NCBI RefSeq assembly: GCF_001677475.2
Contig: NZ_CP015229.1
Length of the DNA stretch: 64,000 bases
Reading direction: 5' to 3' (one strand)
Source: Escherichia coli
GTDB lineage: Bacteria > Pseudomonadota > Gammaproteobacteria > Enterobacterales > Enterobacteriaceae
Shown: positions 5,220 to 44,040 of the stretch, piece after piece
Layout of the letters: every line of letters starts with the position of its first letter
Position numbering within the stretch: the first letter of the stretch is position 1
Notes under the pieces: model-generated
Seen by the model: only the letters and a program-made list of their open reading frames with translations
Database searches by the model: none
Told to the model about the DNA's origin: nothing
Program-made: the position numbers and the translations under genes

Positions 5220-5595
5220 AATTCACACCCTTATAAGGCTGGGAAAGCAGACGGAATCAAAACGAAACGCAACGTGCGAGATCGACTAACTGCACCATAT
5301 TCTCCTGAAATATGAAGATATACTGAAAACAAATAAGCGACTTAGGACAGTTTCAATCTACGCTACTGTTCTTCAGAAGAGTATAGCCCATCGTAATTAT
5401 TTTTCGGTGACAGCGAATATCGTATGTTTTTTCATATTCATACATTTTTATTAGGGGATTTATGGCTATTTAACTAAGTGTGGTTAATTGCGTGGTGAAT
5501 TTGACTTAAGTAAGCATGATTACTAGTGGGATATTTCAAGAGGGTAGCAAGCCGGTGGGTAAACCACCGGCTTGTCACAAAGTATGAATGGGAGT

Positions 5596-6915
5596 TTAAC
5601 TGCCCCAACGACTTTGCAGATAGCTGACCGCTTGTTGAGTCTGCGGTTTATTCAGATAGTCCTCACGGAACAAGATGGTGCCGCTAATTTCTGGTACCGC
5701 ATCGTTAAGATCGAGCTGCTTTTTCAGTTCCGGTACGCCGCCGTTAATCATCCAGTCTGGCTCTATCTTTGAAGGTTCACCCACTTTATAGAAGGCGATA
5801 CCGATATACAGGCGGGTCCTGGTCGGTTTAACGACATCCGCCCACCATTTTGCCAACACGTCATAACGCGCGGCACTCCGTGAGAACGGCCAGTAAATTT
5901 GGGGAGCAATGTAATCCAGCAATCCTTGTTCCACCCATCGACGGGTGTCAGCGTAGGATTCGTCATAGGCTGCCGCGCCTCGGGTATCGGAACCGAGCGG
6001 ATCGTGTGATCGGTTACGCCACACGCCTGCCGGGCTAACACCAAATTCGACTCCCGGCTTAATGCTTTTAATGGTGTGCGATACCTTTGCAATTAACTGC
6101 TGAGTATTGTTGCGCCGCCAGTCTGCTTTTGACGCAAATGCGCCTCCGTATTTACGGTACGTTTCGTTATCATTTAGCCGTGAACCCGGTGATTCAGTAT
6201 AGAAATAGTCGTCAAACTGCACGCCATCTACCGGATAGCGGGAAACCACTTCCGCGACTATTGATGTGATCCAGTCCTGAACCTCAGGGATGCCCGGGTC
6301 GAGGACAAAGCGATCGCCGGACGTTCTGATCCAGTCGCGGTGTTGCACATAGACGCTCGCCGGTTGTTGAGACAGAGTGCTATTCAGTTCCCTGATAGTA
6401 CCGGGCTTCGTATTAACCGATACGCGATAGGGGTTAAACCAGGCGTGTACTTTCATCCCACGCTTGTGAGCTTCGTCGAGAATAAATTGCAGCGGATCGT
6501 AACCTGGATTTTCACCAATCTTTCCGGTCATAAGATCGGACCACGGCAAAATTTTCGATGGCCACAGGGCGGTACCGTCCGGCTTGACCTGGAAAAAGAC
6601 CGTGTTTATGCCGAGACGTTGCAGATGATCCAGTTTGTCGATCATCGCCTGTTGTTGTACACGTGCCCGGCTGGTGGGGTTACTAATGTTAACCGAGGAA
6701 ACCGGTGGCCAGTCGAGGCGAGACACCGTGGCCAGCCAGATGCCACGCATCGGTTGTGACGATTGTTGCGTCGTGGCTGGTGGCTTCGAACCTGTTGGTG
6801 GTGTCACCATTGACTCTGGGGGCGTGCTTTTGCAACTACACAGTAAAAGTGCCAGTGCAACCAGTACCGCGGGTCTTCTAATCGCTAATTTCTCGTTTCG
6901 GGAGCAGATATCCAT
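5596..6915 (-). CDS. yddW: Lipoprotein glycoside hydrolase YddW/DigH
   Basis: 439-aa ORF with lipoprotein signal (…LLLCSCKS) recognised as E. coli YddW. Confidence 0.85.
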   Translation of the reverse strand: MDICSRNEKLAIRRPAVLVALALLLCSCKSTPPESMVTPPTGSKPPATTQQSSQPMRGIWLATVSRLDWPPVSSVNISNPTSRARVQQQAMIDKLDHLQRLGINTVFFQVKPDGTALWPSKILPWSDLMTGKIGENPGYDPLQFILDEAHKRGMKVHAWFNPYRVSVNTKPGTIRELNSTLSQQPASVYVQHRDWIRTSGDRFVLDPGIPEVQDWITSIVAEVVSRYPVDGVQFDDYFYTESPGSRLNDNETYRKYGGAFASKADWRRNNTQQLIAKVSHTIKSIKPGVEFGVSPAGVWRNRSHDPLGSDTRGAAAYDESYADTRRWVEQGLLDYIAPQIYWPFSRSAARYDVLAKWWADVVKPTRTRLYIGIAFYKVGEPSKIEPDWMINGGVPELKKQLDLNDAVPEISGTILFREDYLNKPQTQQAVSYLQSRWGS

Positions 6916-26949: not shown

Positions 26950-29601
26950 TTAGCGACAGATTGCTGTCTGCTGGTTCAGTAAGGTACCAGGAGAAACTTC
27001 AGGAAGCTTGTACTCGACAATACAGTTTGAGTTTTTATCTTTGCCCCATGAAACCTGTAATTTCCCTGACTGTGGAAGTCCAGTCAGATAAACCTGACCG
27101 TTTTCCGCGACAATGCTGCCATTTTTATTCTCTCCATGTGTGACAATTGCACCGAATGGAACGCTCTTATTACCGTACTTCAACGTCATTAATACTTTCC
27201 CGCCGATTTGTGCATTAAATGTTGCTCTGGCAATAGCACCGTGAGTTGGGATGACAGTGACCACGGTTTCATCCAGTTCAACATTATCTGCAAGGGAATT
27301 CGCGTTAAGAGCGACACGATTTTCTCTATATTCTGTCGCAAATGGTAATATGGCATAGCCACGCCAGTCGGTATGAATTCCGGTCTGGTTCTCTATTTTG
27401 ACATTATCAGCGCCAGGAGCCTTAACCAGAACCATTGTGTCGCCCAGCGGCTGACCAAAGGTGATGCCATCAGCATGAGCAATAATCCCACCACTCATTC
27501 CGTAATAAATCTGGCTGCTGTCCCCACTCCGACTGTAACCGACATTAGTATTACCGTAAGCTCCACGATAATTAAGAGAACTGTAACCACTGGTGGCAGA
27601 CGATGTATTACCTCCGTGGGTGTTACCTACCTGAACGCTATAATTCAGGTTATTATCCGGCAGCAGAGTGCCATAAACCCCCGATAGATTGGTCATGCCG
27701 CCTTTCAAATCGTTTGACATACTGTAACTGGCGTTTGAATTACGAAATGCCGACTGACTGTCTGTACGCATCCAATGACTGAAGGGAACATTAAGCGTAA
27801 AAGCAAGTAAATGATCCCGATCGTTTTGCCATATATTATTGGAATAGCTGTAATTCAGCGAAGTCGTAATATCACCAAACGGCACATTTAATCCAAATGA
27901 TATTTGCTGGTCGCTGCGTGACGTGTTCCAGTAACTTTGGCGACTGGCACTGAAAAATGTCGTACCGTAATTTCCAAGCTGCTGAGAGATGCTTATTTGT
28001 TCCTGACCACGCTTACTGTAGAACAGATTAAAATAATCAATAAATTGTGTCTGCTCATTGCTGTCTCCGGTAGGAGGCTTGACGGTGTAACCACTCATTC
28101 GACTGTAGGCACTGTCGGATAAGTTATAAAAACCTTGCGTAGAATAGCGATATCCTGCGACCTGGATATTGGTTCCCGTCTGGTAGAAGGATTTGCTGTA
28201 GACGGATTTAATCGATTGCCCGCTGTGACGGGTGCCATCTGCAAGTGTCGTATTGGCCTGCGTGATATCGAAAGAAAAGGCACCAAAAAGTCCTAAATCT
28301 TTACCAATACCAAGGTTGAAGGCCTGATAATCTTCTGCAATTTGCATTCCGCCATAAGGTGTCCAGTTTCCTTCCAGTCCATGCATCAAGCTACCTTGTA
28401 TGAACTTGGGGGAGCTTTGCAGGTTATTTCCACTACGATATTCCCCCATGGCAAGCGCATAACGCGTATATCCAGCACGTTGGAGAACCGGAACAGACGA
28501 ATAAGGAACATATAATGTCTGAATACTGCCGTCTGCCTCTTTTATGGTTACTTGCAGATCACCACCATTGGCCGCAGAGTTGATATCATCAATAGTAAAA
28601 GGGCCGGGTGGAACAGTAGTCTGATAAACATCGTATCCGTTCTGTTTTACACTCACTTGTGCGGTGCCACGGGCAATACCATGAATCACCGGAGCGAAAC
28701 CATGTTGGCTATCGGGCAACATCGCTTCTGTTGAATTTATTTTGAGGCCACGAAAGTTCACACTATCAAAAATATCGCCATCGGTATAACTATCACCTAC
28801 CGTTAACCGTGAGCGTAAGGGAATAATGTCACGTTCAGCCGACGTATTGATATGCTGCCATTTATTGCTGTCAGATGAATTGCTACTCCCACTGTTATAA
28901 CTCCACGTTGAGTTATCGCGCAGTCGCCAACTACCAATGTTGATGCCACTCTGTAAATTCAAATATGCATAGTTGGATTTTCCTGCATTATGGTTACTAC
29001 GATTATTAATAGAATTACCATTAAAACTATAGTTTAGAAGCCCAGCATTTATTCCTTCTTCCCACAGATCAGGAGAAACATAGCCGCTAGCCATTCTGCC
29101 AACATAAATTTGCGGAACGGAGAGTGACAGATGTTGCTGACCAACATCAAACTCAGTTGATGCGTCGGCCAAACGATCCTGAAGTGGTGTGCATGCGCTG
29201 TTGTCCGGCACATGTTTTTCTGCCGAATGTTCCTTATTGCCTAATAATGCAGATTTTTTTATGCCAAGACTGACAAGAAGATCTGTACTCAGGCATGGGA
29301 TGAGATCTGCGTTATTATCATCTGCAATAAAAGTAATATCCCGACTAGTCATAAATTCGTCGTTCAAATAAATGTCGACCCGATATGTACCAGGTGGTGC
29401 CTCGCGTCCCTTAGTAAAGGCGGATAAATCGACAGATTCAGCAAGATCATTGCTTAAAAACCGTGGATTAAAATAATACTCTGCGTCAACGGGAAAAACC
29501 GCAGTTGCTAAGCCAAGGGCAATGGTAAGCCGTGCAAAGCGAGGCAGTAGTAACACCTGATGCATACGATATGCCTTAAATGCGGCACGAAAGGCTGTCA
29601 T
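26950..29601 (-). CDS. ydeT: Fimbrial outer-membrane usher, full length
   Basis: 883-aa ORF at usher size and position; in K-12 ydeT is only a fragment (recalled), whereas here it is intact. Start codon choice (MTAF vs MHQV) not resolved. Confidence 0.85.
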   Translation of the reverse strand: MTAFRAAFKAYRMHQVLLLPRFARLTIALGLATAVFPVDAEYYFNPRFLSNDLAESVDLSAFTKGREAPPGTYRVDIYLNDEFMTSRDITFIADDNNADLIPCLSTDLLVSLGIKKSALLGNKEHSAEKHVPDNSACTPLQDRLADASTEFDVGQQHLSLSVPQIYVGRMASGYVSPDLWEEGINAGLLNYSFNGNSINNRSNHNAGKSNYAYLNLQSGINIGSWRLRDNSTWSYNSGSSNSSDSNKWQHINTSAERDIIPLRSRLTVGDSYTDGDIFDSVNFRGLKINSTEAMLPDSQHGFAPVIHGIARGTAQVSVKQNGYDVYQTTVPPGPFTIDDINSAANGGDLQVTIKEADGSIQTLYVPYSSVPVLQRAGYTRYALAMGEYRSGNNLQSSPKFIQGSLMHGLEGNWTPYGGMQIAEDYQAFNLGIGKDLGLFGAFSFDITQANTTLADGTRHSGQSIKSVYSKSFYQTGTNIQVAGYRYSTQGFYNLSDSAYSRMSGYTVKPPTGDSNEQTQFIDYFNLFYSKRGQEQISISQQLGNYGTTFFSASRQSYWNTSRSDQQISFGLNVPFGDITTSLNYSYSNNIWQNDRDHLLAFTLNVPFSHWMRTDSQSAFRNSNASYSMSNDLKGGMTNLSGVYGTLLPDNNLNYSVQVGNTHGGNTSSATSGYSSLNYRGAYGNTNVGYSRSGDSSQIYYGMSGGIIAHADGITFGQPLGDTMVLVKAPGADNVKIENQTGIHTDWRGYAILPFATEYRENRVALNANSLADNVELDETVVTVIPTHGAIARATFNAQIGGKVLMTLKYGNKSVPFGAIVTHGENKNGSIVAENGQVYLTGLPQSGKLQVSWGKDKNSNCIVEYKLPEVSPGTLLNQQTAICR

Positions 29602-30714: not shown

Positions 30715-31278
30715 TTATAGATATTGAACTTTGAAGGTCGCATCTGCGTTTGCAGTACCAGCTACTGACTGCCCGAGAGCAATATAACGAGCCTGGAATG
30801 GCAGTATATTCGTGCCATCAATCAAGTCAGTTTTAGCGCTAAAAGTGGTACCATCAAGTATTAATACCTCCCCCGTACGGTCCAAAATTTGAATACCAAC
30901 ATTTTGGGCAGAGCCTGCCGCTGAACTCTGCAGCGCTAACGTGTCGTCATTACTGGTGACAGTAGTACCCAGGAATGCAACAGCTGCATTACTGGAAACA
31001 TTGGTATCACAATCATTCAGCTTGATATTGAAGCCAACGGCGGAGCTGAGGTCACCCGCTTTAGCCAGACGAGAAGAACGGACCTGACCCAGCTCAACCG
31101 TTTGGTTCATTGATTCTGAATCAATCGCACAAGCGGCATTTACCACTTCACCTTTAAAATGAATAACACCGCCATTAACAGTGGTCGTTACTGATTCATC
31201 ACCCTCGGCTGCGCTTACCGCAGCAGACGACATCGCCAACACAGAAACGACAATCATACCGACATGTTTGAGTTTCAT
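30715..31278 (-). CDS. Major fimbrial subunit (FimA-like)
   Basis: ORF 30715..31326 trimmed to [23 protein letters not shown]... (187 aa), preceded by GGAG; first gene of the operon. Confidence 0.8.
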
Positions 31279-31711
31279 AATTCTCCAAAATCTATATTTA
31301 AGTAGCTGAATAAAGAGAGTTAACAATTAAGTCATTCTGTTATTGCTTATAAAACAAGAATCATTCTTGATTGGTTGTTGCCCTGAGAATATAGTTTCCA
31401 GGGTTATTACATTTCACGAAGAACGATAATATCTTTAAATCACAAGGACACCTAATCACAACAAGTTTATTGCTGCACTTGTTGGAGAGAGTATTTGCAA
31501 AAACATTTTATGGCGCTAAATAACATGACGATTTCATTATGCATGTTATTTATAAACCGTGACTAAACAGAATATTATTGCGGACAAGGGAAGTGTCAGG
31601 AAAGGTCAAGAGATACTAATGGTTTATATGGCTATAAATCATTAGTTATGGTTAATGTTTGCCTGGTGTAACTAACACGGAATTGCTCTAAACAGATAAG
31701 TGCAGGGTTTA

Positions 31712-32062
31712 TTAAAGCTGACCGACAGACTTTCTTAACCTGGTAATATCTCTCTTAGGTGACTCTCCAAACATCCGCGAATATTCCCGACTGAAATGGG
31801 ATAAGCTTTCGTAACCGACAGCATAGGCTGCAGTGGTGACATCGTAATGTTCATTCAGCATCGGTCGCCTGGCTTCATTGAGGCGTAGCCATTTCTGATA
31901 CCGGAGTGGACTCATTCCCGCAAGCTGTCTGAAGTGTTGATGGAAAGAGGGGGGTTCATTTGCACGCGGTTTGCCAGCCTGACTCTTCAACGCAGGGAAG
32001 ATGCGGCAAACGGCAAACCTGCATACCAGCCAGCCTATATCCGGTATGCACAGGCTAATCAT
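31712..32062 (-). pseudogene. yneL: AraC-family regulator fragment (HTH domain only)
   Basis: 116-aa ORF carrying only an AraC-type HTH (…LSHFSREYSRMFGESPKRD…) with no sensing domain; corresponds to the yneL remnant that flanks dif in K-12. Confidence 0.6.
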
Positions 32063-32141
32063 GAAAGAGGAGAGGCTTTATGTTCTTGAACCCTGAAGTA
32101 ATAACGACGACCGGAAAATCGCTTCGCATCACTCAAACTCA

Positions 32142-32169
32142 ATTTAACATAATATACATTATGCGCACT
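32142..32169. other. dif-like site, left junction (attL): host-like XerD arm, phage-like XerC arm
   Basis: ATTTAACATAA-TATACA-TTATGCGCACT; 27 of 28 identical to the reverse complement of E. coli dif (GGTGCGCATAATGTATATTATGTTAAAT, recalled); the single mismatch is the outermost base of the XerC arm. Confidence 0.85.
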
Positions 32170-32181
32170 AAGGTGCGCATA
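32160..32181 (+). repeat. 9-bp perfect inverted repeat of the XerC-binding arm
   Basis: TATGCGCAC-TAAG-GTGCGCATA; the left half is the XerC arm of attL, the right half an inverted copy; overlaps a 10-bp palindrome CGCATATGCG (32176..32185). Confidence 0.8.
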
Positions 32182-32202
32182 TGCGTATTCTGGAGGTGTG
32201 TC

Positions 32203-33066
32203 ATGGCTTGTACTCGTCCTTTGAACGCGTACCAAATGCCATCGGGGAAGATTTTTTTCACGCCGTCACGTGGCGCTAAATTCATTCAGTTGCCCTGTGG
32301 TCAGTGCATCGGTTGCCGTCTTGCTCATTCTCGTGACTGGGCGACCCGCTGCGTTCATGAAGCCCACATGCACGATCACAATTGTTTTATCACTCTGACT
32401 TATTCGCCTGAGAATTTACCTGAAGGCGGTACTCTCGTTCGTAAACATTTCACCGATTTTATGAAGCGTTTGCGTAAGGAATTAGATAAGGATGATGTGA
32501 AAATTCGTTATTTTGGCTGTGGTGAATATGGCTCTAAATTAGAGCGACCGCATTATCATGCGATTATTTTTGGTTATGATTTTCCGGATAAGACACTTTA
32601 TAAAGCGGGAAGATTTAATTTATTTAATTCCCCGCTTCTTTCGAGATGTTGGAATCTTGGTTGGGCTGTTATTGCTGGTTTTAGTTTTGAGTCGGCTGCT
32701 TATGTGGCGCGATACTGTGTTAAAAAAATCAACGGTTTCCGTGCAGATGAGCATTATGGACATCGCCTACCCGAGTTTTCGGCTATGAGTAATCGCCCAG
32801 GTATTGGGTATGATTTTTTTATGACCTATTACGAGGATATTGTTAATGCAGATGCGTGTATTGGTCGTGGCGGTCGTCAGATAAAACCGCCCCGCTATTA
32901 TGACAAGTTATTATCAGGCTGTGATTTGGAAAAGTTGCAGCAGAATAAAGAAAAGCGCCAGTTAAATGCCCGTGTATTAGACCCGTGGCGTTTGCAGGAT
33001 TTGGATAAGTTTAATCTGGTTAAATTCCAGCGAATGATGAGGAAATTAGAAGATGGCTCACTCTGA
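32203..33066 (+). CDS. Replication initiation protein (VP4, rolling-circle HUH endonuclease)
   Basis: Track ORF 32080..33066 trimmed to MACTRPLNAYQ… (287 aa) with GGAGG 6 nt upstream. Rolling-circle motifs: FITLTY, HYHAIIF (HUH), AAYVARYCVKK (catalytic Tyr pair), plus CGQCIGC. Confidence 0.9.
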   Translation: MACTRPLNAYQMPSGKIFFTPSRGAKFIQLPCGQCIGCRLAHSRDWATRCVHEAHMHDHNCFITLTYSPENLPEGGTLVRKHFTDFMKRLRKELDKDDVKIRYFGCGEYGSKLERPHYHAIIFGYDFPDKTLYKAGRFNLFNSPLLSRCWNLGWAVIAGFSFESAAYVARYCVKKINGFRADEHYGHRLPEFSAMSNRPGIGYDFFMTYYEDIVNADACIGRGGRQIKPPRYYDKLLSGCDLEKLQQNKEKRQLNARVLDPWRLQDLDKFNLVKFQRMMRKLEDGSL

Positions 33067-33322
33067 TGCAGTTTATGTAATTCATGACAAGCTGATTGCG
33101 GCTGATGTTTTTATGTTTATGGCCCAGCATGATGGTATTGCGAAAGGCAATTTGCACGCGTTCTGTAACCGTATGCAGCGCACTGACTTTGTGCTGTACC
33201 GTGTGACGGCTTATGACTTTGAAGACCAGCAGCTCGTCCCCGTGGACATTGACCGCGTTTATATTTGCACCGCTTTCCCTGCCATGCTGGAGAATGCCCA
33301 AGATGAAATCCTTGAAGCGTAA
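33053..33322 (+). CDS. Small phage protein, VP5-like
   Basis: 89-aa ORF overlapping the VP4 3' end and the VP3 start; assigned by size and position in the gokushovirus gene order, not by motif. Confidence 0.6.
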   Translation: MAHSDAVYVIHDKLIAADVFMFMAQHDGIAKGNLHAFCNRMQRTDFVLYRVTAYDFEDQQLVPVDIDRVYICTAFPAMLENAQDEILEA

Positions 33323-33815
33323 GTTCCATACCCGCTATGACCCGCCGCCGTCGCCCGGCATCGAGTTCAAAGAACCCACGATGACCCAGCAGCATTTCCG
33401 CGATGAGTGCGACATCAACAAGATTGTTGAGCGTGCGATAAGAACGGGAGATACGACAGTCTTTACCAGTGCTCAACGTGCTGATTTCTACGATGCATCT
33501 TCGATTACTGACTACGTGGACGCAATGGCTTTAATTGACGACGTTAACGACGACTTTAACAGCCTGCCGTCCACGATTCGCTCGATGTTTGGTAATAACG
33601 TTAAGCAGTACGTTGAGTGGATGAGTAATCCCGCGAACTGGAATAAAGCCCGTGAGCTTGGATTGTTGAGCGGCGGAGAGGAGTCGGCGACCGAACGCGC
33701 CAGCGTTCGCGAGTCGAGTCCTGCTCCGGCGTCCCCGCGGGAGCGTGAGCGGACTTCGGAGAGTTCCCCGAAGGGGGAGTCGGAGAAGTCTGCGAATAAT
33801 GATGCAGGCTCATGA
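33303..33815 (+). CDS. Internal scaffolding protein, VP3-like
   Basis: ORF 33213..33815; likely start MKSLKRKFHTRYDPPPSPGIEF… (33303, or 33294); acidic Ser/Glu-rich C-terminus. Assigned by position and size. Confidence 0.6.
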   Translation: MKSLKRKFHTRYDPPPSPGIEFKEPTMTQQHFRDECDINKIVERAIRTGDTTVFTSAQRADFYDASSITDYVDAMALIDDVNDDFNSLPSTIRSMFGNNVKQYVEWMSNPANWNKARELGLLSGGEESATERASVRESSPAPASPRERERTSESSPKGESEKSANNDAGS

Positions 33816-33855
33816 GCTGCATGAAAAAAACCTGAAGACGGCTCCGGCCCTTCAG

Positions 33856-33892
33856 CCTGGCACAGTGGCCCTCTTGATGTAACTGTGCCAGG
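33856..33892 (+). repeat. 11-bp perfect stem-loop in the VP3-VP1 intergenic region
   Basis: cctggcacagt-(15 nt)-actgtgccagg. Confidence 0.8.
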
Positions 33893-33904
33893 TGACACCG
33901 AAAC

Positions 33905-33932
33905 TTACAGGCGGCTCCCACGAAGCCTGTAA
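33905..33932 (+). repeat. 8-bp stem-loop in the VP3-VP1 intergenic region
   Basis: ttacaggc-(12 nt)-gcctgtaa. Confidence 0.75.
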
Positions 33933-33992
33933 AAAGGTGTCAGTTTATACAGTAGTTTGTGTAGTATTTAAACAATTCCCTGAGGGGGGTTT

Positions 33993-35705
33993 ATGAGTAA
34001 ATTCGGTCGTAAAGTACCTAGTAATGCAAAAAGTCAGCATAATTTTTCAGTAATCCCGAGTGCCAATATTCAGCGTTCGGTCTTTAACCGCAGCTCTGGT
34101 TATAAAACCACTTTTGACGCTGGTTATTTGATTCCCGTGTTTCTGGATGAGGCTTTGCCGGGTGATACATTCCACCTGAAAACGTCCATACTGGCGCGTT
34201 TATCCACGCCAGTGGTGCCGTTTATGGATAACCTGCGACTGGACATCCAGTATTTTTCCGTGCCCTACCGTCTGGTCTGGGATAACTGGCAGAAATTCAA
34301 CGGTGAACAGAAGAATCCTGGCGATTCGACGGATTACCTTATTCCGCAGATTAAAGCCCCTGCTGGCGGCTTCCCTGTAGGCTCCCTTGCCGATTATTTT
34401 GGTGTTCCCACAGGTGTGGAGAATATCAGTGTAAGCGCCCTGCCGTTCCGCGCTTATAACCTGATTTATAACGAGTGGTATCGTGATGAAAACCTGATTA
34501 ATTCCGCCCCGCTTCCGCTTGGCGATGAGGAAGAAACAGGCCTCGCCAATTTCCCGCTGCGTAAGCGTGCCAAGCGTCACGATTACTTCACAAGTGCTCT
34601 GCCGTGGCCTCAGAAGGGTGAAGGCGTTGAGATTGGTTTAGGCGTTCCGCCGTCGTATACGCTCGATTTCCCGACCTATCCTGATGGTCTGCCGTTTGTT
34701 TCTTATGGCGTTGGTGTCGATGGAGATATGACTTCGCACAATCCGACTTATCTTGCCCGTAATAATGTTAACGAAGGCTCATCATACGAGGCCTATGGTA
34801 ATGCGGTTTATATGAGTGACGGCAGGAATCCCAGCAATCCGCTGGAATGGCCTCCTATGTCGCCCTCCACTGGACGTATTGATGTTATTGGTGGTTTTAG
34901 CAGAAACCAGCCTCCGGTTACGTTAAATAAGCAAGGTGGTGAAGTTGTCGATAATCTGACAATTAACTCGCTGCGTCAGGCGTTCCAGCTTCAGCGGCTG
35001 CTTGAGCGCGATGCTCGCGGTGGTACTCGCTATATTGAGATTATCCGCTCCCACTTTGGCGTTATTTCGCCTGATGCCCGTGTACAGCGTCCCGAGTATC
35101 TCGGCTCTGGTTCATTCGACATAAATATTAATCCTGTTCTTCAAAACTCCGCGACGACCGACGCAAGTCCGCAAGGCAACCTCGCGGCCTATGGTGTCTC
35201 CGGTGGTGTTAACCGTGGATTTTCTCATTCTTTTGTGGAGCACTGTTTTGTTATTGGCCTTGTTAGCGTTCGTGCTGACCTGACCTACCAGCAAGGCATC
35301 CCGCGCATGTTCTCCCGCCAGACCCGCTTTGATTTCTACTGGCCTGCACTGGCTCACCTGGGCGAACAGGCTATCCTTAACAAGGAGATTTACGCGCAAG
35401 GCAACGACAAGGATGATGAAGTATTTGGCTACCAGGAACGTTACGCGGAGTACCGCTACCGACCGTCTCAGATTACTGGTAAATTGCGTTCTACCGACCC
35501 GCAATCCCTCGATGTGTGGCATTTAGCCCAGCGGTTCGACTCTCTGCCCGCACTGAATCAGGAGTTTATCGAGGAGAATCCACCGATGAAGCGCGTCCTC
35601 GCCGTACAGGACGAGCCTCAGTTCATCATGGATGCGTTCTTCGACCTGAAGTGTGTGCGGCCTATGCCTGTTTACTCAGTACCAGGTCTTATCGATCATT
35701 TCTAA
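33993..35705 (+). CDS. Major capsid protein (VP1, Microviridae F-protein family)
   Basis: 570-aa ORF MSKFGRKVPSNAKSQHNFSVIPSANIQRSVFNRSSGYKTTFDAGYLIPVFLDEALPGDTF…, closely resembling the conserved N-terminal block of gokushovirus VP1 (recalled Chlamydia-phage pattern …IQRS.F.RS.G.KTTFDAGYLIP…PGDTF…); RBS GAGGGGGG. Confidence 0.9.
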   Translation: MSKFGRKVPSNAKSQHNFSVIPSANIQRSVFNRSSGYKTTFDAGYLIPVFLDEALPGDTFHLKTSILARLSTPVVPFMDNLRLDIQYFSVPYRLVWDNWQKFNGEQKNPGDSTDYLIPQIKAPAGGFPVGSLADYFGVPTGVENISVSALPFRAYNLIYNEWYRDENLINSAPLPLGDEEETGLANFPLRKRAKRHDYFTSALPWPQKGEGVEIGLGVPPSYTLDFPTYPDGLPFVSYGVGVDGDMTSHNPTYLARNNVNEGSSYEAYGNAVYMSDGRNPSNPLEWPPMSPSTGRIDVIGGFSRNQPPVTLNKQGGEVVDNLTINSLRQAFQLQRLLERDARGGTRYIEIIRSHFGVISPDARVQRPEYLGSGSFDININPVLQNSATTDASPQGNLAAYGVSGGVNRGFSHSFVEHCFVIGLVSVRADLTYQQGIPRMFSRQTRFDFYWPALAHLGEQAILNKEIYAQGNDKDDEVFGYQERYAEYRYRPSQITGKLRSTDPQSLDVWHLAQRFDSLPALNQEFIEENPPMKRVLAVQDEPQFIMDAFFDLKCVRPMPVYSVPGLIDHF

Positions 35706-35722
35706 GTTACATTGTCACTTTT

Positions 35723-35745
35723 GGCCTCTGCGGAGGCCTTTTTTT
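35723..35745 (+). terminator. Intrinsic terminator/attenuator after the capsid gene
   Basis: ggcctc-tgcg-gaggcc followed by TTTTTTT. Confidence 0.7.
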
Positions 35746-35759
35746 CATGAGGTGAAATT

Positions 35760-36542
35760 ATGGGCTTTTTATCATCTGCCATTGGTGCCGCTGGTTCTAT
35801 TGCCGGCTCCCTGCTTGGTGCGAACTCTGCGAAGGATTCAGCTAACCGTGCCAATAAGTTAACGATGGATTTGGCCAAAAACGGCATCCAGTACCGTGTG
35901 CAGGATTTACGGAAAGCTGGCCTTAACCCCATTCTGGCCGTTACTGGTTCCGGTGGTCTTGGTTCCGTCAGTTCGTCAGGTATTCAGGCCGCCCAGCCTG
36001 CCGATTTTTCTGGTGTGGTTAATTCTGCGGTCAGCGTATTTGACGCATTAACGAAGCGTCAGCAGCAGGAAGTCGCTAAGGAAGGCATCATGTCCCAGAT
36101 TGCGTTACAACGTAACCAGATTGCGAATAGCGCGGCTGATGTGAAGCTCAAAGAGGCTCAGGCTGCGCAAGCCTTATCTTCCATTTCTACTGGTAATGCC
36201 CAGACTAATTTGATTAATCAGCAGGCTTTGACCGAGGCTTCCCGCCGTGCCAATATTGAAGCACAGACGGGCCTTAGTTCTGCGCAGCGGATTAGAACAC
36301 AGTATCAAACTGTACAGGACAAGGTTTTGGCTGATTATTTGAATACACCGATTGGAGCTGAAAGTGCACGTGTCAATATGGATGCTTCTCGCGGTGGTAT
36401 CGTTGGCGGCGTTAATACTTTTCTGCGTTCTTTGCAACGTGATTACCCGTCTAACTCGAACTCTGCGAAGAAAGTAAACAAGGGGGGAACCTTCCCCCCT
36501 TCACAGTTCCAACAGCAATTGATTAATAACTATCGGAGGTAA
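35760..36542 (+). CDS. Minor capsid / DNA pilot protein (VP2-like)
   Basis: 260-aa ORF with Gly/Ala/Ser-rich N-terminus (MGFLSSAIGAAGSIAGSLLGANSA…) and Gln/Ala-rich predicted coiled region; RBS GAGGTG; position after VP1. Confidence 0.7.
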   Translation: MGFLSSAIGAAGSIAGSLLGANSAKDSANRANKLTMDLAKNGIQYRVQDLRKAGLNPILAVTGSGGLGSVSSSGIQAAQPADFSGVVNSAVSVFDALTKRQQQEVAKEGIMSQIALQRNQIANSAADVKLKEAQAAQALSSISTGNAQTNLINQQALTEASRRANIEAQTGLSSAQRIRTQYQTVQDKVLADYLNTPIGAESARVNMDASRGGIVGGVNTFLRSLQRDYPSNSNSAKKVNKGGTFPPSQFQQQLINNYRR

Positions 36543-36543
36543 T

Positions 36544-36663
36544 ATGGCTCGTTCTCGCCGTCGTATGTCCAAGCGTTCTTCCCGTCGTTCGTTCCGTAAG
36601 TACGCAAAGACGCATAAACGTAACTTTAAAGCCCGCTCTATGCGTGGTGGAATTCGTCTTTGA
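36544..36663 (+). CDS. Small basic DNA-binding protein (VP8 / J-like), absent from the ORF track
   Basis: ATG at 36544, stop TGA 36661..36663; translation MARSRRRMSKRSSRRSFRKYAKTHKRNFKARSMRGGIRL (39 aa, roughly 40% Arg/Lys). Confidence 0.7.
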   Translation: MARSRRRMSKRSSRRSFRKYAKTHKRNFKARSMRGGIRL

Positions 36664-36693
36664 TTGACAAAGTTGATCGTAACGATCTATGAT
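36664..36693 (+). promoter_or_regulatory. Putative sigma70 promoter at the prophage right end
   Basis: TTGACA (36664..36669), 18-bp spacer, TATGAT (36688..36693); the spacer contains GATCGTAACGATC with two GATC sites. Pattern match only. Confidence 0.35.
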
Positions 36694-36716
36694 AATTATC
36701 GTAAGTCGTTGTTTTT

Positions 36717-36744
36717 GTTAAACTAAATATACATTATGCGCACC
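36717..36744. other. dif-like site, right junction (attR): phage-like degenerate XerD arm, host-like XerC arm
   Basis: GTTAAACTAAA-TATACA-TTATGCGCACC; XerD arm 7 of 11, central region 6 of 6, XerC arm 11 of 11 versus dif. Confidence 0.8.
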
Positions 36745-36820
36745 AACATAAACCAAGGGAGAATCCAGTCGTTGGCGGTCATGATTGTCCTGCTCATTAA
36801 CAACGGCCAAACCCCATATC

Positions 36821-38143
36821 TTACTTAATACCGTATTCTCGGCTTAACCGACGGTGCAACCTCAACACATTGGTTTCAACTGCCGTCACCACGTTCTTCG
36901 GAAAATCTGTCGGTAATGAAGTCTTCACGTTATCCAGTGCTGCCGGAATCATTCTGGCAAAGTCACTCAGGATTTCATGCATCTGCACTTCCGGAAATTT
37001 CAGCACCTTTGCTGTCGCCAGAAAATGTCGCGGATAAATTTTATCGATTGCCGTTTTTTTGCCTTTGGATGAGTTAAGCCCCATTGCCAGTTTGAGATCG
37101 CTAATGTGTATTCCTGCGCCACCCAATACCGGAAATGCTGAAATGATGTCGTAAAATGGCGTGAGTCGATAACTGCCGCCAGCCTGAATAAATACGGAGA
37201 AGTTTTTTGCATGGCCATCCGTTGCGCCAATCAACCACTGGAACACCTGAAACTTCATAAAATCATAGCGATCTTTCAGCGCCTCGCTGGACCCCATCAA
37301 AAAAGCCATGATCCGCGCGATACCTGGGCCTCCATCTGATTCATATTTCACCGATGAAGGTAAACCGAATGTCTGACACATATCCTCCTGTGGCAAGCGA
37401 AGTAAAACCGTTCGCTCAGCATTCCAACGCCTGTCAAAACGTTCGACCGCTAACGCACGCACATTTCCCGCTTTAATGATTTCTGCGTCCGGCACATTCA
37501 ACCCAAGTTCTTTCGCCAGCAGCAGACAGTAATACTCATTATCAACGCTTTGGCTGAGATCGAGCGTCGCATTGGGCTGCCTGATTTCGCCAATCGGTAA
37601 TTTAATGATGTGTGTCGTCGGCGTTATTCCTTTCGGAATGCACCAGTCATTGCCTATTCTGAGCAGCGCTGTCTTCTCCTGCGCGCCAGCAACCGAGATG
37701 CGAAAGTCATTTTCTTCTCTAATCATGCCTAGAGGGATATCTGCTTTATAAGCCGTTAATACTTCTTCAAGCCTGGCTTCAGTGAGCTGCTCCCATGCCA
37801 TTATCGGGCGCGTTATGGTTTCATTTTCGGGTAATAACGTTACGGCACCAACGCTGTCTCGCCCTATTTCTGACAATAAATCAAACGGTTGTCTGGATTT
37901 AGCATGATAACGTTTAACGATCCGGTCACGTACAATCGGGCTATCGGGTAGCAGGTTATCGAAGAAGTTAAATACGGCATCAGAGGTGATATTCCCCCTC
38001 TGCAATGGCAGCGAAAGTGACAACGGTCTGGCATAACGGTTAGCTAACCACTCCGGTGCATACTTAAAGGTGTGCGCGCCATTGGCTAACTTCGTTAACT
38101 CGCCTACCCGCTGGTTGTTCATCCAAGTGACAAGTTTAGGCAT
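36821..38143 (-). CDS. hipA: Ser/Thr kinase toxin HipA
   Basis: ORF 36821..38200 trimmed to MPKLVTWMNNQRVGELTKLANGAHTFKYAPEWL… (440 aa); start overlaps the hipB stop by 1 nt. Confidence 0.92.
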   Translation of the reverse strand: MPKLVTWMNNQRVGELTKLANGAHTFKYAPEWLANRYARPLSLSLPLQRGNITSDAVFNFFDNLLPDSPIVRDRIVKRYHAKSRQPFDLLSEIGRDSVGAVTLLPENETITRPIMAWEQLTEARLEEVLTAYKADIPLGMIREENDFRISVAGAQEKTALLRIGNDWCIPKGITPTTHIIKLPIGEIRQPNATLDLSQSVDNEYYCLLLAKELGLNVPDAEIIKAGNVRALAVERFDRRWNAERTVLLRLPQEDMCQTFGLPSSVKYESDGGPGIARIMAFLMGSSEALKDRYDFMKFQVFQWLIGATDGHAKNFSVFIQAGGSYRLTPFYDIISAFPVLGGAGIHISDLKLAMGLNSSKGKKTAIDKIYPRHFLATAKVLKFPEVQMHEILSDFARMIPAALDNVKTSLPTDFPKNVVTAVETNVLRLHRRLSREYGIK

Positions 38144-38409
38144 TACCACTCCAGATCTTGCTGTTCTGTTGATTCTGGCGAGGCATTTTTCGTGTCGCAT
38201 AGCGTCATTGAGAGTTCAAGCGACTGTAAAATCTTAAAAAATGTCGTGAGCGTGGTATTGTCAGGGTTGTTTTCGAAATTGGAAATTGTCGCCTGCTTAA
38301 TACCGATTTTTTTCGCCAGCTCGCTCTGCGTCCAGCCATTTTGCTGACGAACCAGTTTCATTGCATTCGCTAATTGCGTTGGGCTATAAATCTTCTGAAA
38401 GCTCATCAT
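38143..38409 (-). CDS. hipB: Antitoxin and HTH repressor HipB
   Basis: ORF 38143..38427 trimmed to MMSFQKIYSPTQLANAMKLVRQQNGWTQSELAKKIGIKQATISNFENN… (88 aa). Confidence 0.9.
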   Translation of the reverse strand: MMSFQKIYSPTQLANAMKLVRQQNGWTQSELAKKIGIKQATISNFENNPDNTTLTTFFKILQSLELSMTLCDTKNASPESTEQQDLEW

Positions 38410-38430
38410 GTCATACGTCCATAGCAAATT

Positions 38431-38544
38431 TATCCGCTCAAGGGGATATTATCAGTTTTATCCTTTAGTGGGGATAAAGTCAATCAGGAAACACATTTTA
38501 TCCGCTCTACGGGATAAACGCTGCGATATCCGCGATCGCGGATA
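38431..38544. promoter_or_regulatory. Four HipB operators upstream of hipBA
   Basis: TATCC-N8-GGATA at 38431..38448 (TATCCGCTCAAGGGGATA), 38459..38476 (TATCCTTTAGTGGGGATA), 38499..38516 (TATCCGCTCTACGGGATA) and 38527..38544 (TATCCGCGATCGCGGATA). Confidence 0.9.
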
Positions 38545-38619
38545 AAAAGGAGAATTTAAAAGTCGTTTGAAGTCGGCAATATTAAGCCGCATGCCATCTC
38601 TACATGCGGCTTATACGGT

Positions 38620-41600
38620 TTACCAGCTATATTTAACACCCAGCATGCCCTGAGTATCGCTATAGCCTTTATCACCTAGTTGCACACCGACATTCCCCCA
38701 CAGGCTAAGGTTGTTATTTACTTTCGCCTCAACCCCGGTACGTACTTCACCGAGATTACGCGCACCATCACGGCTTACGGTTTGACCATTCATCTTCACG
38801 GCGTAGACTTTGCTGTTGTTGATCCAGTTCGCTTCAATGTAAGGCTGGAACTCACGCTGTTTACCATTGTCACGCTGGTGATGACTGTTCAGGTAGGTTT
38901 TCACCCCAAGCCGCGTTTGCACGTTTCCGTCACCTTCCGTTTCAATGCGTGTTCCGTCTTTCCGGGTATGGTCAGAATTTTTCACACCCATCCAGGTGAT
39001 TTGCACCTGTGGCTGGACGTACCAGGTATTCAGCGTCCCTTCGCTGCCGCTAAATATTCCCGCTTCAAAGGTATACCCACCCTCAACAGAGGCCGTCAGA
39101 CCGCGAGAATCATAGTCGTCAGCAGAACGGTTATCGGAACTGACGCTGTTATCAAACCAGTTATACAGCGCCCAGCTGTCAACATAAGCGCCGGTCTTAT
39201 TCGCATCGTTCTGATACCAGGTCGCGTAAATCCCAGCGCTGTACCCGCTGATGCGCCCATCCGATTTATAACCCACACGATTACTCTGAGTATTACTGTG
39301 CTGATTGGCATAGCCTGCCATAATGCCGAGGTGCCAGCGATCCTGCGCGTTGCTACTCCACTGCGCCAAATCGCCGCCTAGATGCAATACATAGCGGTTA
39401 GCCTGAGTATTTAGCTGACCGTCACCGGTCCTGAAACGTTCGTGCCCCCCGACATGACGCATCCACATACTGCTTGCTGCACCCTGAGAATGCAGTGAAT
39501 CTGCATACTGTGGCTCACCCAGACGGTCGTGTAAGCGATGGCTAAACAGCGAGTTAGCTGCGGCAATGTTGCTGATATAGCTTCCGGCCTCCGGGCGATA
39601 AACTGATGGGCCTTCCGGATCCACAACAGGGGGATTATTAATGGGATCGGGTGTATCCGGTGGCGTTACGCCGTCCCATTTACTGGTCAGATACCAGTTT
39701 TTCTCGTCATTCCCCTTCCCTTTAGCCAGCGTGTAGACGTATGCCCCAGCTTCGACAGTTCCGGTGGTCAGCGCGAAGTTACCTGCAGAATTACCGCCAA
39801 CCTCAATGAGTTCAATACCGTTGACCGTATGTGCACCGACGCCGCCAATGTTATCAACCCGAACGCGAGTGCTTCCTTGTGTATCGCCTTTCACGTTCAT
39901 CTTATCGGTGGGCGAATTATCGCCGCCCAGCGTCGCGTTGAACGTTATCAGGCCATTGTTTCCGGTATCGTTGCCGTTAACGGTCAGTACATTCCCCGGT
40001 TTTCCTCCTTCACTATTCATTTGAACCGTGCCGCCATTCTCCAGATTGCCGCCGATAGTGGTTTTGGCGACACGCAGTGTCCCCCCAGACATAACGTTCA
40101 CATCACCTGCAGTGGTGACATTTCCCGACATCACACCGCTGTTGTGGATATTAATGTGCTGACTTGCCATATTAATGGCAGAGTCGGAACCGAAAGCAAT
40201 TTCACCACCCACGATATCCGTCGTACCCTTATACGTCGCGGAATCGTTGTTAAGAGTCAGGATCCCGGTCCCCAGTTTTGTCACATCACCGCTACCGCTG
40301 ATACTGTGCGTCATCGCCCAGCTACGCTCAGTGGAGATGGTGAGCAGGCCATTATTGATAACGGAAGCATCACCCAGGTTTTTCTGCTCGTTGACGCTGA
40401 GCGCGCTACCTGCATCGATGTTGAATTGCCCCACAAAGCGGCTATTATCGCCATCCAGCTCTACATCTGTCCTGGCGGTTGCGCTCACGATACCCTTCCC
40501 GCTTATGCTATTACGCAGTTCGCCAGTCACGTTTTTTAGCGTTAACAGACCGTCATTGGCAATATTTCCTCTGCCTAACCCCTGCGTATTATCGAGGCTG
40601 ACTTCCGCATTTGGGCTAACGCTGGTTAACGCATTGTAGCGTGCATTAAGCCCCTCGATAGCCAGCGTTCCCCCTGTAACATTCAGATTACCGCCACCTG
40701 TCAGTTCACCCTGACTGATCCCACCTTTATTTACCGTCAGCGCCCCCTCTTTGAACAAAACAGTCGAACCCATCTGCCCGGTGAATGTCTCTACCGTCTG
40801 CGTCGATCCATTAAGATCGACGATGGCCGCGTTGCGGATGTTCAGTTCCCGGGTGTTGCCCAGCGCGCCATCCGCATCGGTACGTAATGTCCCCATCTGA
40901 ACATAGGTTGCCCCCTGATAGTCGTTCTGACCGTTGGAAAGCGAAACCTGTCGCACCGTATTGATTGCCAGATCCCCTTCACCACCGATTTTTGCCGACA
41001 TATCGGCCGTTGCGCCATAGGCTCCGCCATGTTCGGCTAACGTCAGCTTTTGCCCACCATGGATGTTCAGCGCTTTCAGCCCATAGTTAACATACAAACC
41101 ATCACCAGGTACGGTCGTGAGGCGGAATCCATAATCACCCTCGGCGACCACTGTTCCGTTTTGTGCAATGTGTAACGTTTTGTCCGCTTCCACCTCGTCG
41201 CCCTGTAAATCACGTAACGTTAATGAGCCACCCGACCCAATAACCGTTTGCGCCTTCACCAGTTGAACGCCGACATGGCTATCATCGTGTTCCAGCAAAT
41301 TGAGCGTCGTCAGAGGGTTATTCGCCATGGGATCATTCCACGGTTTAGGCACGTCGATAAGCACGTCGCCCGTCCCGTTTACCTGATAGTTACGGCCTTT
41401 CCAGGTGTAGTCACCCGCGCCGACAACCAGCGTATCGACGCTGATATATCCCTCCGCAAGCGTCGCAGCAGGTATATCCGTATCGAAAGTGAGCGTACCG
41501 CCATTCATGGCTAGTCCACCAATGGATTGCTCTCCCACTTTTACCGATGTGGTATTTTCACTGTCAGACTGAAGCATCGCGTGAGTAAGCGCAGCGGTGT

Positions 41601-44040
41601 TGTCGCGTTCCAGTGTGAAGGTACTGTCTTTCAGTTGGGCAACACCGGCGAATTCAGTTCCTGTTGCATGGGTAAAGCCAAACATTTTGTCGGAGGATGA
41701 CAGCTGCACTCGCATCAAGCCATCGCCTTTGAGCGCATTGGTCAGCGTGTAATCTCCTGCGCTGTTCGTTGATGCGAGAATGTCTAGCGTACCGGGGCTT
41801 GCAATGGTTACTTCACTCGAACCCATGCCTGTTACCCCATCTGCCGTATGTGACGCAATAGTCAGGAGGCCGTCATTGACCAGCGTTTTACCGCTATAAG
41901 TATTCCCTGCATTGAACACCGTATGGCCTGCATCATGCATCACTTTTCCGCCTTTATCGTCACCCGTAATCAGCATATCGACCTGGTAGCCGGCATCACT
42001 GTTATTAGTATGATTAAAGACAAAAACGCCTTCGCCATGACCAAACTCTACTTTCGTCGCGTTGGTGATAAATCCGGCATCTGCCGCCGCCTCACCGTGA
42101 GCAGCACCAATGTTTAGCGTTCCTACAGCAGGATCAAAAAGACCTAAGTAAACTTCGCCACCCTCAACATTTAGCGTGCCGTTATTCGTCAGGGTTAACG
42201 TACCCGTGCCAGTCGTCCCTACGTTCATATTGAATGTTTCAAGAAGAGAGTTCTGCCCATCCACCCTCACGTCGCCCTTACTTTTGTCATTGAGAGCTAT
42301 CTGTGTATCACGCGCTTTAACTATACCTCCGGTGGTAATATTCAGTTCACCCGAGCCTAATACACCGACCTGTAGCAATTGGGCGTTATTAGAAGACGTC
42401 TTTAAATTCCAAAGACTATCCGTTGAAATATTAACTATTCCCTTACCGGGGGAATTTCCTCCGATAAATCCATAGCCCGTTGAATTAAGTGTGGCACCAT
42501 TACTGACATTTACGATACCGCTACCAAAATTACCGACATTGATACCCACAGTATCGAACGATGATGTCGCATCCATCAGGTTCAGTGTGCCGATACTGCT
42601 TGCTTTATCGCCCAAAAAAGTAATATTTTGCGATACGAACTTACCGCCATCGCTAATATTGAGGTTTCCGACGCCCGCAACACCAATGGTGGTATAGACA
42701 TTCTTATTGACCTCCCATATCCCCCCCGTGGTGATGCTAACCTTCCCGACGCCGGTTTCGCCATAACCGAGTGAGCTTCCTCCGTTGCTGACAACAAGCC
42801 CCTCATTACTGATATTCATTTCGCCGTGGCCGTCATAACCAAGATTAGTTCCGAGATTAGTGATAACGGAGTTCTTATCCTTAACAGTAATGTTGCCAGT
42901 GCCTGTTTCTTTCATCCCCGCAGTGATAATTCCCGAATCTACTTTACCTGCACGCGAGACATTAAGTTCACCGTCGCCAGCATCACCGATATAGATATAG
43001 CGGAAAGCTTCGCCTGTTCCGAGGAAATTCCAATGCCCTTTATCGGTCACGTTGACGACACCGTGGGAACCGTCCTGAACGCCCACCAATGAATATTCTT
43101 TGTTATTAATTAGTCCATTATTGGAAATATTGACTGTGCCATTACCGAAATATCCATTATAGAGTCTGCGTACCGTGATGACAGAGTCTTGATCCTGCAC
43201 ATTCAGGGTTCCGATACCGGTAGCATTGCCACCGATAATCGTATTTTCAGCCGTAATCAGCCCACCCTCGCGAATAGTCGCTTCTCCCGTCCCTTGATTA
43301 CCAATTTGAAATTCAATTGAGGAGTCGTTATTTTTTATTAGCCACTCACCGCCCTTTTCAACGACAACCTGGCCATTACTGCCCGTCTGATAGCCTAAAA
43401 TGGCGACGATTGAACTCGTGACATAACCCTTATCTGTAATATTTAATGAACCTGTGCCATAGCTACCTATTTCGAATAACTCCGTCGTCAGAACCGAGTC
43501 CTCTCCCTCAACATTAATCATCCCGACGCCTGCAGCTTGAGTACCTAATCTTAAATAGCCTCCATCAACGTGACCTTTCTGTTTAATATTCAGCGTCCCC
43601 GTTCCGGATTGACCCACATTTAAAGGCCTTGCATTATTTCCGCTATCATACAATCGCCAGGTGCCACCCAAAACATTAACGGTGCCCTCTGAGTCCTCAT
43701 TAGCGCCAATGACACTGGTAGTAATAGTGGTTAAGGAGGCATTTCCGCCAGCCAAAATATTAAGCACTCCAGTGCCATACCAGCCAACCAGATAGGCATC
43801 ATAAGCAACATCAGTATCAATATTGGTAATCAGACCATTATCAACTTCAAGACTTGCACCAGACGCTGAACCGCTTAGTGCCAGCAAAACACCCAGCGTC
43901 AATCTACTGAATTTCGTTGTCAGCCCAGAGGATTTATGTAAATTAACCGTCGATGTTTTACCTACCCTGAGAGTTAATTCCGAGCAGACCTGAAATACCT
44001 GTAGGGTGCAATTCCATATCACGCGATAGATTCTATTCAT
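38620..44040 (-). CDS. Large AIDA-I-type autotransporter adhesin, intact
   Basis: 1806-aa ORF with extended signal peptide MNRIYRVIWNCTLQVFQVCSEL…, long Gly/Thr/Asn-rich repeat passenger, and C-terminal β-barrel ending …GMLGVKYSW; recalled as fragmented (yneO/ydeK/ydeU) in K-12. Confidence 0.85.
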   Translation of the reverse strand: MNRIYRVIWNCTLQVFQVCSELTLRVGKTSTVNLHKSSGLTTKFSRLTLGVLLALSGSASGASLEVDNGLITNIDTDVAYDAYLVGWYGTGVLNILAGGNASLTTITTSVIGANEDSEGTVNVLGGTWRLYDSGNNARPLNVGQSGTGTLNIKQKGHVDGGYLRLGTQAAGVGMINVEGEDSVLTTELFEIGSYGTGSLNITDKGYVTSSIVAILGYQTGSNGQVVVEKGGEWLIKNNDSSIEFQIGNQGTGEATIREGGLITAENTIIGGNATGIGTLNVQDQDSVITVRRLYNGYFGNGTVNISNNGLINNKEYSLVGVQDGSHGVVNVTDKGHWNFLGTGEAFRYIYIGDAGDGELNVSRAGKVDSGIITAGMKETGTGNITVKDKNSVITNLGTNLGYDGHGEMNISNEGLVVSNGGSSLGYGETGVGKVSITTGGIWEVNKNVYTTIGVAGVGNLNISDGGKFVSQNITFLGDKASSIGTLNLMDATSSFDTVGINVGNFGSGIVNVSNGATLNSTGYGFIGGNSPGKGIVNISTDSLWNLKTSSNNAQLLQVGVLGSGELNITTGGIVKARDTQIALNDKSKGDVRVDGQNSLLETFNMNVGTTGTGTLTLTNNGTLNVEGGEVYLGLFDPAVGTLNIGAAHGEAAADAGFITNATKVEFGHGEGVFVFNHTNNSDAGYQVDMLITGDDKGGKVMHDAGHTVFNAGNTYSGKTLVNDGLLTIASHTADGVTGMGSSEVTIASPGTLDILASTNSAGDYTLTNALKGDGLMRVQLSSSDKMFGFTHATGTEFAGVAQLKDSTFTLERDNTAALTHAMLQSDSENTTSVKVGEQSIGGLAMNGGTLTFDTDIPAATLAEGYISVDTLVVGAGDYTWKGRNYQVNGTGDVLIDVPKPWNDPMANNPLTTLNLLEHDDSHVGVQLVKAQTVIGSGGSLTLRDLQGDEVEADKTLHIAQNGTVVAEGDYGFRLTTVPGDGLYVNYGLKALNIHGGQKLTLAEHGGAYGATADMSAKIGGEGDLAINTVRQVSLSNGQNDYQGATYVQMGTLRTDADGALGNTRELNIRNAAIVDLNGSTQTVETFTGQMGSTVLFKEGALTVNKGGISQGELTGGGNLNVTGGTLAIEGLNARYNALTSVSPNAEVSLDNTQGLGRGNIANDGLLTLKNVTGELRNSISGKGIVSATARTDVELDGDNSRFVGQFNIDAGSALSVNEQKNLGDASVINNGLLTISTERSWAMTHSISGSGDVTKLGTGILTLNNDSATYKGTTDIVGGEIAFGSDSAINMASQHINIHNSGVMSGNVTTAGDVNVMSGGTLRVAKTTIGGNLENGGTVQMNSEGGKPGNVLTVNGNDTGNNGLITFNATLGGDNSPTDKMNVKGDTQGSTRVRVDNIGGVGAHTVNGIELIEVGGNSAGNFALTTGTVEAGAYVYTLAKGKGNDEKNWYLTSKWDGVTPPDTPDPINNPPVVDPEGPSVYRPEAGSYISNIAAANSLFSHRLHDRLGEPQYADSLHSQGAASSMWMRHVGGHERFRTGDGQLNTQANRYVLHLGGDLAQWSSNAQDRWHLGIMAGYANQHSNTQSNRVGYKSDGRISGYSAGIYATWYQNDANKTGAYVDSWALYNWFDNSVSSDNRSADDYDSRGLTASVEGGYTFEAGIFSGSEGTLNTWYVQPQVQITWMGVKNSDHTRKDGTRIETEGDGNVQTRLGVKTYLNSHHQRDNGKQREFQPYIEANWINNSKVYAVKMNGQTVSRDGARNLGEVRTGVEAKVNNNLSLWGNVGVQLGDKGYSDTQGMLGVKYSW

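Follow-up and report, generated by a model that had tools for sequence, protein, structure and literature searches.

hipBA and a gokushovirus prophage as neighbours at dif in Escherichia coli

The hipBA toxin-antitoxin operon of the E. coli chromosome examined here lies next to a dif-like site and a prophage, raising the question of whether the phage acts on this operon or whether the two merely share a location. The question was addressed in a stretch of 64,000 nucleotides, called the window below, in which the span 36821-38544 runs from the hipA stop through the last base of the fourth HipB operator. Our overall reading, built on the observed gene identities, operators, junction structure, conservation and strain sequence identity, is that an ordinary hipBA operon at dif adjoins a gokushovirus integrated by XerCD, the two being neighbours through the position of dif, and we regard this reading as very probably correct. 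The features concerned are collected in Table 1.

Table 1 Features of the hipBA, dif and prophage region, in window positions
Feature	Position	Strand	Details
Distal dif site, AGTGCGCATAA-TGTATA-TTATGTTAAAT	32142..32169	-	phage-type first base in XerC arm and bacterial XerD arm; 27/28 to dif
Enterogokushovirus prophage, 4547 bp	32170..36716	+	all genes on + strand, convergent with hipA
vp4, rolling-circle replication initiator	32203..33066	+	phrog_942, E 8e-112; PF23343
vp5, nonstructural protein	33053..33322	+	position and gene order as in EC6098 annotation; gene call
vp3, scaffolding protein	33303..33815	+	phrog_1642; PF09675 Chlamy_scaf
vp1, major capsid protein	33993..35705	+	phrog_514, E 3e-217; PF02305 Phage_F
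vp2, DNA pilot protein	35760..36542	+	phrog_8693; EC6098 annotation
vp8, 39-aa arginine-rich putative DNA-binding protein	36544..36663	+	phrog_10695; EC6098 annotation
Phage sigma-70 promoter-like site, TTGACA-18-TATGAT	36664..36693	+	11/12; consensus match only
hipA-proximal dif-like site, GGTGCGCATAA-TGTATA-TTTAGTTTAAC	36717..36744	-	bacterial XerC arm and phage XerD arm; 24/28 to dif
hipA, Ser/Thr kinase toxin, 440 aa	36821..38143	-	ATG at 38143; K-12 HipA match
hipB, Xre-type HTH antitoxin and repressor, 88 aa, ends W88	38143..38409	-	HipB equivalog
HipB operator O1, TATCCGCTCAAGGGGATA	38431..38448	.	TATCC-N8-GGATA, aligned to K-12; closest to hipB start
HipB operator O2, TATCCTTTAGTGGGGATA	38459..38476	.	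TATCC-N8-GGATA, aligned to K-12
HipB operator O3, TATCCGCTCTACGGGATA	38499..38516	.	TATCC-N8-GGATA, aligned to K-12
HipB operator O4, TATCCGCGATCGCGGATA	38527..38544	.	TATCC-N8-GGATA, aligned to K-12

The coordinates of hipA and hipB were the same in independent gene calls on the identical public contig. The two genes share a single base, 38143: read on the minus strand, TAATG joins the TAA that ends hipB to the ATG that starts hipA, bearing out the 1-nt overlap described in a first-pass annotation of this DNA. The TAATG overlap fits the translational coupling of hipB to hipA expected of a K-12-type HipBA. The window HipA matched the crystal-structure chains of K-12 HipA (PDB) over its full length (E 2e-292) and carries the Couple_hipA (PF13657, N-terminal) and HipA_C (PF07804) domains, together with a TIGR03071 match at 103.6 bits. 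It differs from the K-12 protein by 13 substitutions in 440 residues (97% identity), and a position-by-position comparison with K-12 found G22, S150, K181, D291, D309 and D332 unchanged. From the HipA structure literature, we take S150 to be the autophosphorylation residue and K181, D309 and D332 to be residues that matter. HipB matched the NCBIfam HipB equivalog NF007271 at 184.5 bits, against a cutoff of 79, and has two substitutions relative to K-12, with W88 kept in a C-terminus that reads ...DLEW. The hipA7 allele is defined by G22S and D291A (PMC3376134); since both positions are wild type in the window HipA, this is not the hipA7 allele. Given the 97% identity to a characterised protein, toxicity of HipA, its neutralisation by HipB and phosphorylation of GltX would all be expected. 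A 459-aa open reading frame extending hipA upstream was considered and rejected, as the 440-aa start, MPKLVTW, agrees with K-12 and with the independent gene calls. In a PADLOC scan, HipA and HipB gave generic HTH hits and, for candidate families, matches that were weak and incomplete; there is therefore no basis for calling hipBA a defence system.

The control region was compared with the published HipB operator consensus, TATCCN8GGATA, to which HipB binds cooperatively (PMC3920265, PMC3376134). Four exact matches to TATCC-N8-GGATA are present within 114 bp upstream of hipB (38431-38544), just as the first-pass annotation had reported, and they pair one-to-one and in the same order with O1-O4 of K-12. 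Chance would give 0.05 matches to this pattern per 64-kb window, and the count stayed below five in all 100 shuffles. Relative to K-12 hipBA, the hexamer beside O1 (38448-38453) reads GATAAT in place of TATAAT, the O2-O3 spacing (38476-38499) is 40 bp in place of 39 bp, and a 13-bp stretch upstream of O4 is missing from the window, this last in a comparison with K-12 only. The hexamer is presumably the hipBA -10, as in the original promoter mapping. Both the GATAAT hexamer and the 40-bp spacing were common to all six other E. coli lysogens examined, and they appear to be natural promoter and operator-phasing variants. Gene order, the 1-nt overlap, protein lengths, catalytic and autophosphorylation residues, the order of the four operators and a distance of 76 bp to dif are all as in K-12 hipBA (b1507/b1508), and the locus reads as the canonical chromosomal E. 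coli hipBA type II toxin-antitoxin operon in its usual position.

A fifth perfect TATCC-N8-GGATA (TATCCTGCGACCTGGATA, 28151-28168) is found 10.3 kb from the hipBA operators. It was rejected as part of the hipBA control region, as it lies inside the 883-aa open reading frame of a fimbrial usher and the same 18-mer is present in K-12, just past the truncated ydeT (position 4055 of the compared K-12 segment); the match is unexplained or due to chance. The usher gene itself (26950-29601, minus strand) is full length in the window, where K-12 ydeT is truncated.

On the other side of hipA, the gap between its stop codon and the dif-like 28-mer is 76 bp, the same as the gap between dif and hipA in K-12, and phage DNA directly abuts this 28-mer. 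The first-pass annotation had correctly named the parts of the locus (a hipBA type II toxin-antitoxin, a dif-type site and a dif-integrated prophage) and had placed dif and the prophage about 80 bp past the hipA stop. The distance stands, but the site found there is not an intact dif, matching at only 24 of 28 positions, and the near-canonical site lies beyond the prophage, at a distance of 4.6 kb. E. coli dif, the site of XerCD and FtsK action, consists of an 11-bp XerC arm, a 6-bp centre and an 11-bp XerD arm (28 bp in all) at the convergence of KOPS, and in K-12 it reads GGTGCGCATAA-TGTATA-TTATGTTAAAT. Compared with this sequence, the hipA-proximal site is identical in its XerC arm (11/11) and centre (6/6), whereas its XerD arm is degenerate (7/11), so that the pair of arms that makes up an intact 28-bp dif is not present beside hipA.

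The origin of the divergent arm was seen by comparison with the attP of Escherichia phage EC6098, AGTGCGCATAATGTATATTTAGTTTAAC, which resolves into AGTGCGCATAA-TGTATA-TTTAGTTTAAC. One bacterial and one phage arm were present at each flanking site in all seven lysogens examined, and both sites look like recombinant hybrids; for the opening base of the XerC arm (A or G), the assignment to the phage was made by parsimony and from the EC6098 database entry, whose sequence had been reconstructed from a prophage. In a published survey of these prophages (PMC7062461), the dif upstream of vp4 is near-canonical and the dif-like motif that follows vp8 is more variable, and the window shows this arrangement too. 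In Supplementary file 1 of that study, the motif at 36717-36744 is listed as the 'phage dif-site' and that at 32142-32169 as the 'bacterial dif-site' of strain MOD1-EC2703, whereas the window sequences indicate that both motifs are hybrids. We read the hipA-proximal site as a recombinant dif-like attachment site and not as the intact chromosomal dif, which is the sole addition to the known picture; the position of hipBA next to dif, its four operators, and the prophage with its flanking motifs in MOD1-EC2703 are all published and already known. In strain C5, a phage-type centre, TGTAAA, remains with the phage XerD arm, suggesting that the crossover was positioned toward the XerC-arm side. The distal site, in which the XerD arm and left-arm flank are intact, is probably the FtsK-dependent dimer-resolution site. 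Just upstream of vp4, a 9-bp inverted repeat (32160-32181, TATGCGCAC-CTTA-GTGCGCATA) spans the phage-type XerC arm and adjacent phage sequence; it is found only in the EC6098-like lineage and could fold over the XerC arm in the single-stranded genome.

The element between the two sites has the gokushovirus gene set, vp4-vp5-vp3-vp1-vp2-vp8 without an integrase, and at 4547 bp it falls within the published prophage size range of 4316-4692 bp (PMC7062461). In this gene order, in the lack of an integrase, in its flanking dif motifs and in its integration site, it resembles EC6098 and 95 enterobacterial gokushovirus prophages described in the same study. The nucleotide identity to EC6098 (genus Enterogokushovirus) is 92% over 90% of the prophage length. 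A 7.7-kb segment of the window, 30993..38705, is 100% identical to NJSK01000007 (assembly GCA_002516285.1), which belongs to E. coli MOD1-EC2703, O36:H14, clade H (PMC7062461 Supplementary file 1, Kirchberger and Ochman 2020), and both flanking motifs tabulated for that strain are exactly those of the window (PMC7062461). Experiments with EC6098 showed that integration requires host XerC and XerD as well as both arms of the phage motif, and that excision is ongoing and dependent on XerC/XerD (PMC7062461); by analogy, the window prophage would depend on XerC/XerD in the same way. It differs from EC6098 by about 8% nucleotide divergence and in its behaviour, as cultures of MOD1-EC2703 contained circular phage genomes by PCR and yielded no plaques on K-12 (PMC7062461). 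Related prophages were found in 6 of 5426 complete E. coli genomes, each between yneL and hipA. In one of these six lysogens, E. coli E9, an internal stop interrupts hipA (5386-6708 of the compared E9 segment), which is annotated as a pseudogene; hipB is intact.

Two side observations concern the phage genes themselves. Right after the vp1 stop, a strong intrinsic-terminator-like hairpin on the + strand (35723-35745, GGCCTCTGCGGAGGCC) is followed by seven T, which suggests a transcription-unit boundary between vp1 and vp2. The vp4 reading frame can also be extended over the distal dif into host DNA (32080-33066, 328 aa), from an ATG at 32080 preceded by GAGGAGAGG; public annotations differ here, one giving the long 328-aa form and another a 287-aa form, and K-12 has AAG where the window has this ATG. 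The 328-aa form is probably an annotation artefact.

The dif site of K-12 MG1655 is flanked by yneL and hipA, and yneL-dif-hipA has been described as the K-12 arrangement (bioRxiv 10.1101/2025.09.02.673814). A 301-bp probe of the K-12 junction matched 5288 of 5426 complete E. coli genomes, and among the matches listed most covered dif and the end of hipA. Among these listed matches, many genomes (ST131 and CFT073, for example) showed similarity to the probe that starts at the first base of dif, position 4751 of the compared K-12 segment, and runs into hipA; similarity in these genomes thus ends exactly at dif, indicating that the hipA side is conserved and the yneL side variable. The window lies at the terminus, as the KOPS motif GGGNAGGG is perfectly polar, with all six + strand copies left of 25514 and all three - strand copies right of 39713. 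The motifs of the two replichores therefore converge on the interval that holds dif and the prophage, as expected for the true terminus dif zone. Since K-12 and most of the 5426 complete E. coli genomes searched have hipA at 76 bp from dif, integration at dif will by itself place any element next to hipBA. For elements entering the E. coli chromosome through XerCD, this means arrival 76 bp from a toxin-antitoxin operon, and after gokushovirus integration the near-canonical dif has moved 4.6 kb from hipA, with a hybrid site left beside the gene.

These observations are consistent with a simple account of the locus. HipB, with HipA as co-repressor, would bind the four TATCC-N8-GGATA operators and autorepress the operon, and free HipA would phosphorylate glutamyl-tRNA synthetase, the HipA target named in published abstracts, and so stop growth. 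An integrase-less Enterogokushovirus has very probably entered the chromosome through host XerCD, which recombined the dif-like attP of the phage with dif; the crossover fell within the 18-bp stretch common to the two, and a crossover there would leave the bacterial XerC arm and phage XerD arm beside hipA. The site on the yneL side would then carry the phage-type XerC arm with an intact bacterial XerD arm, and probably still serves dimer resolution. In its use of host XerCD for integration, the element would resemble other Xer-integrating elements, such as the CTX phage of Vibrio cholerae, and it is flanked by dif-like direct repeats. It differs from CTX in that gokushovirus integration keeps both sites, whereas CTX destroys the site (PMC7062461), and with both sites kept the integration is reversible. 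On this account, hipBA and the prophage would be adjacent owing to the location of dif and not through a joint function, and we infer that regulatory cross-talk between them is absent.

The first-pass annotation had instead proposed a functional link between the prophage and hipBA. Nothing in the sequence supports such a link, the one hint being a lineage-specific promoter-like site, and the conserved placement of hipA at dif suffices to explain why the two adjoin. The site in question (36664-36693) is the best promoter match of the prophage and lies in its only sizeable non-coding stretch. In the circular phage genome it is upstream of attP and vp4, and in the prophage it faces the hipA 3' end through the hybrid site. 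It could therefore be argued that, in EC6098-like phages, attP is placed between the strongest promoter-like element and vp4, such that integration would quieten the replication initiator without a repressor and at the same time drive antisense transcription into hipA, altering the HipA:HipB balance and persister formation. We consider this general scheme very improbable. The corresponding event in the window, with the promoter at 36664-36693 firing over the hybrid dif and antisense into hipA to change the HipA:HipB balance and persister frequency while vp4 is separated from its promoter, we regard as very unlikely. The match of 11/12 consensus positions and the identity of the sequence in EC6098 and in the MEI7BO1-21 and C41 lysogens, with one base different in E9, would fit such a role, as would the scan of the + strand, in which no terminator-like site was found between the promoter-like site and hipA. 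Against this, the site is a consensus match only, and 34 of 100 window shuffles also gave at least one match to the TTGACA-18-TATGAT pattern with one mismatch allowed. It is absent from the PSS-15/tcmA_3 and C5 lineages (three lysogens) and thus missing in two of the three phage lineages examined that are integrated at this place, and its position is simply explained if it is the vp4 promoter of the circular genome. The eLife paper on these prophages (PMC7062461) mentions neither hipA nor a phage promoter. An outward promoter as a general trait of dif-integrated gokushoviruses was also considered and rejected, as it occurs in one lineage only.

Transcription across the junction was considered in both directions. 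In the stretch that separates the hipA stop from the dif-like site, the scan detected nothing resembling a terminator, and the fold z-score was +0.56; with neither a terminator-like hairpin nor an unusually stable fold, hipBA transcripts may therefore enter the prophage and phage transcripts may enter hipA. Some 320 nt beyond the hipA stop, within the last part of vp2, a G/C-rich hairpin with a T-rich tail (36480-36501, AAGGGGGGAAGGTTCCCCCCTT) has the form of a terminator on the minus strand only and is conserved in three divergent prophage lineages. It could serve as a stop for hipBA read-through, or its form may be no more than a product of vp2 coding. Were the outward-facing phage promoter active, hipA expression could change with lysogeny.

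A link between dif and hipBA has been documented in another setting. When the dif region is lost in a recB or dif mutant, growth stops through degradation of the hipBA locus, and deletion of hipA lets terminus-losing cells keep dividing (PMC5638614, which cites Hendricks et al. 2000 for this effect). This link is a HipA-mediated arrest after loss of terminus DNA and is distinct from any link to a prophage. The further idea that hipBA at dif guards the terminus or the integrated element, with loss of the dif region letting labile HipB decay and HipA arrest the cell, thereby penalising imprecise DNA loss around the prophage, is scarcely credible: the effect is documented for the terminus itself, and most E. 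coli genomes among the matches listed retain the junction of hipA with dif, but the effect is one of dif and hipBA in which the prophage has no part, precise XerCD excision leaves hipBA in place and would not trigger HipA, and the internal stop in hipA of one of the six complete-genome lysogens indicates that an intact hipA is unneeded for prophage retention.

The reading of an ordinary hipBA operon beside a dif-integrated gokushovirus, which none of the observations contradicts, is thus retained, and its importance beyond correct annotation is small. On the side of hipB away from the prophage, the neighbouring ECSE_1600-family autotransporter (38620-44040) is an intact open reading frame of 1806 aa, where K-12 has the pseudogene yneO.
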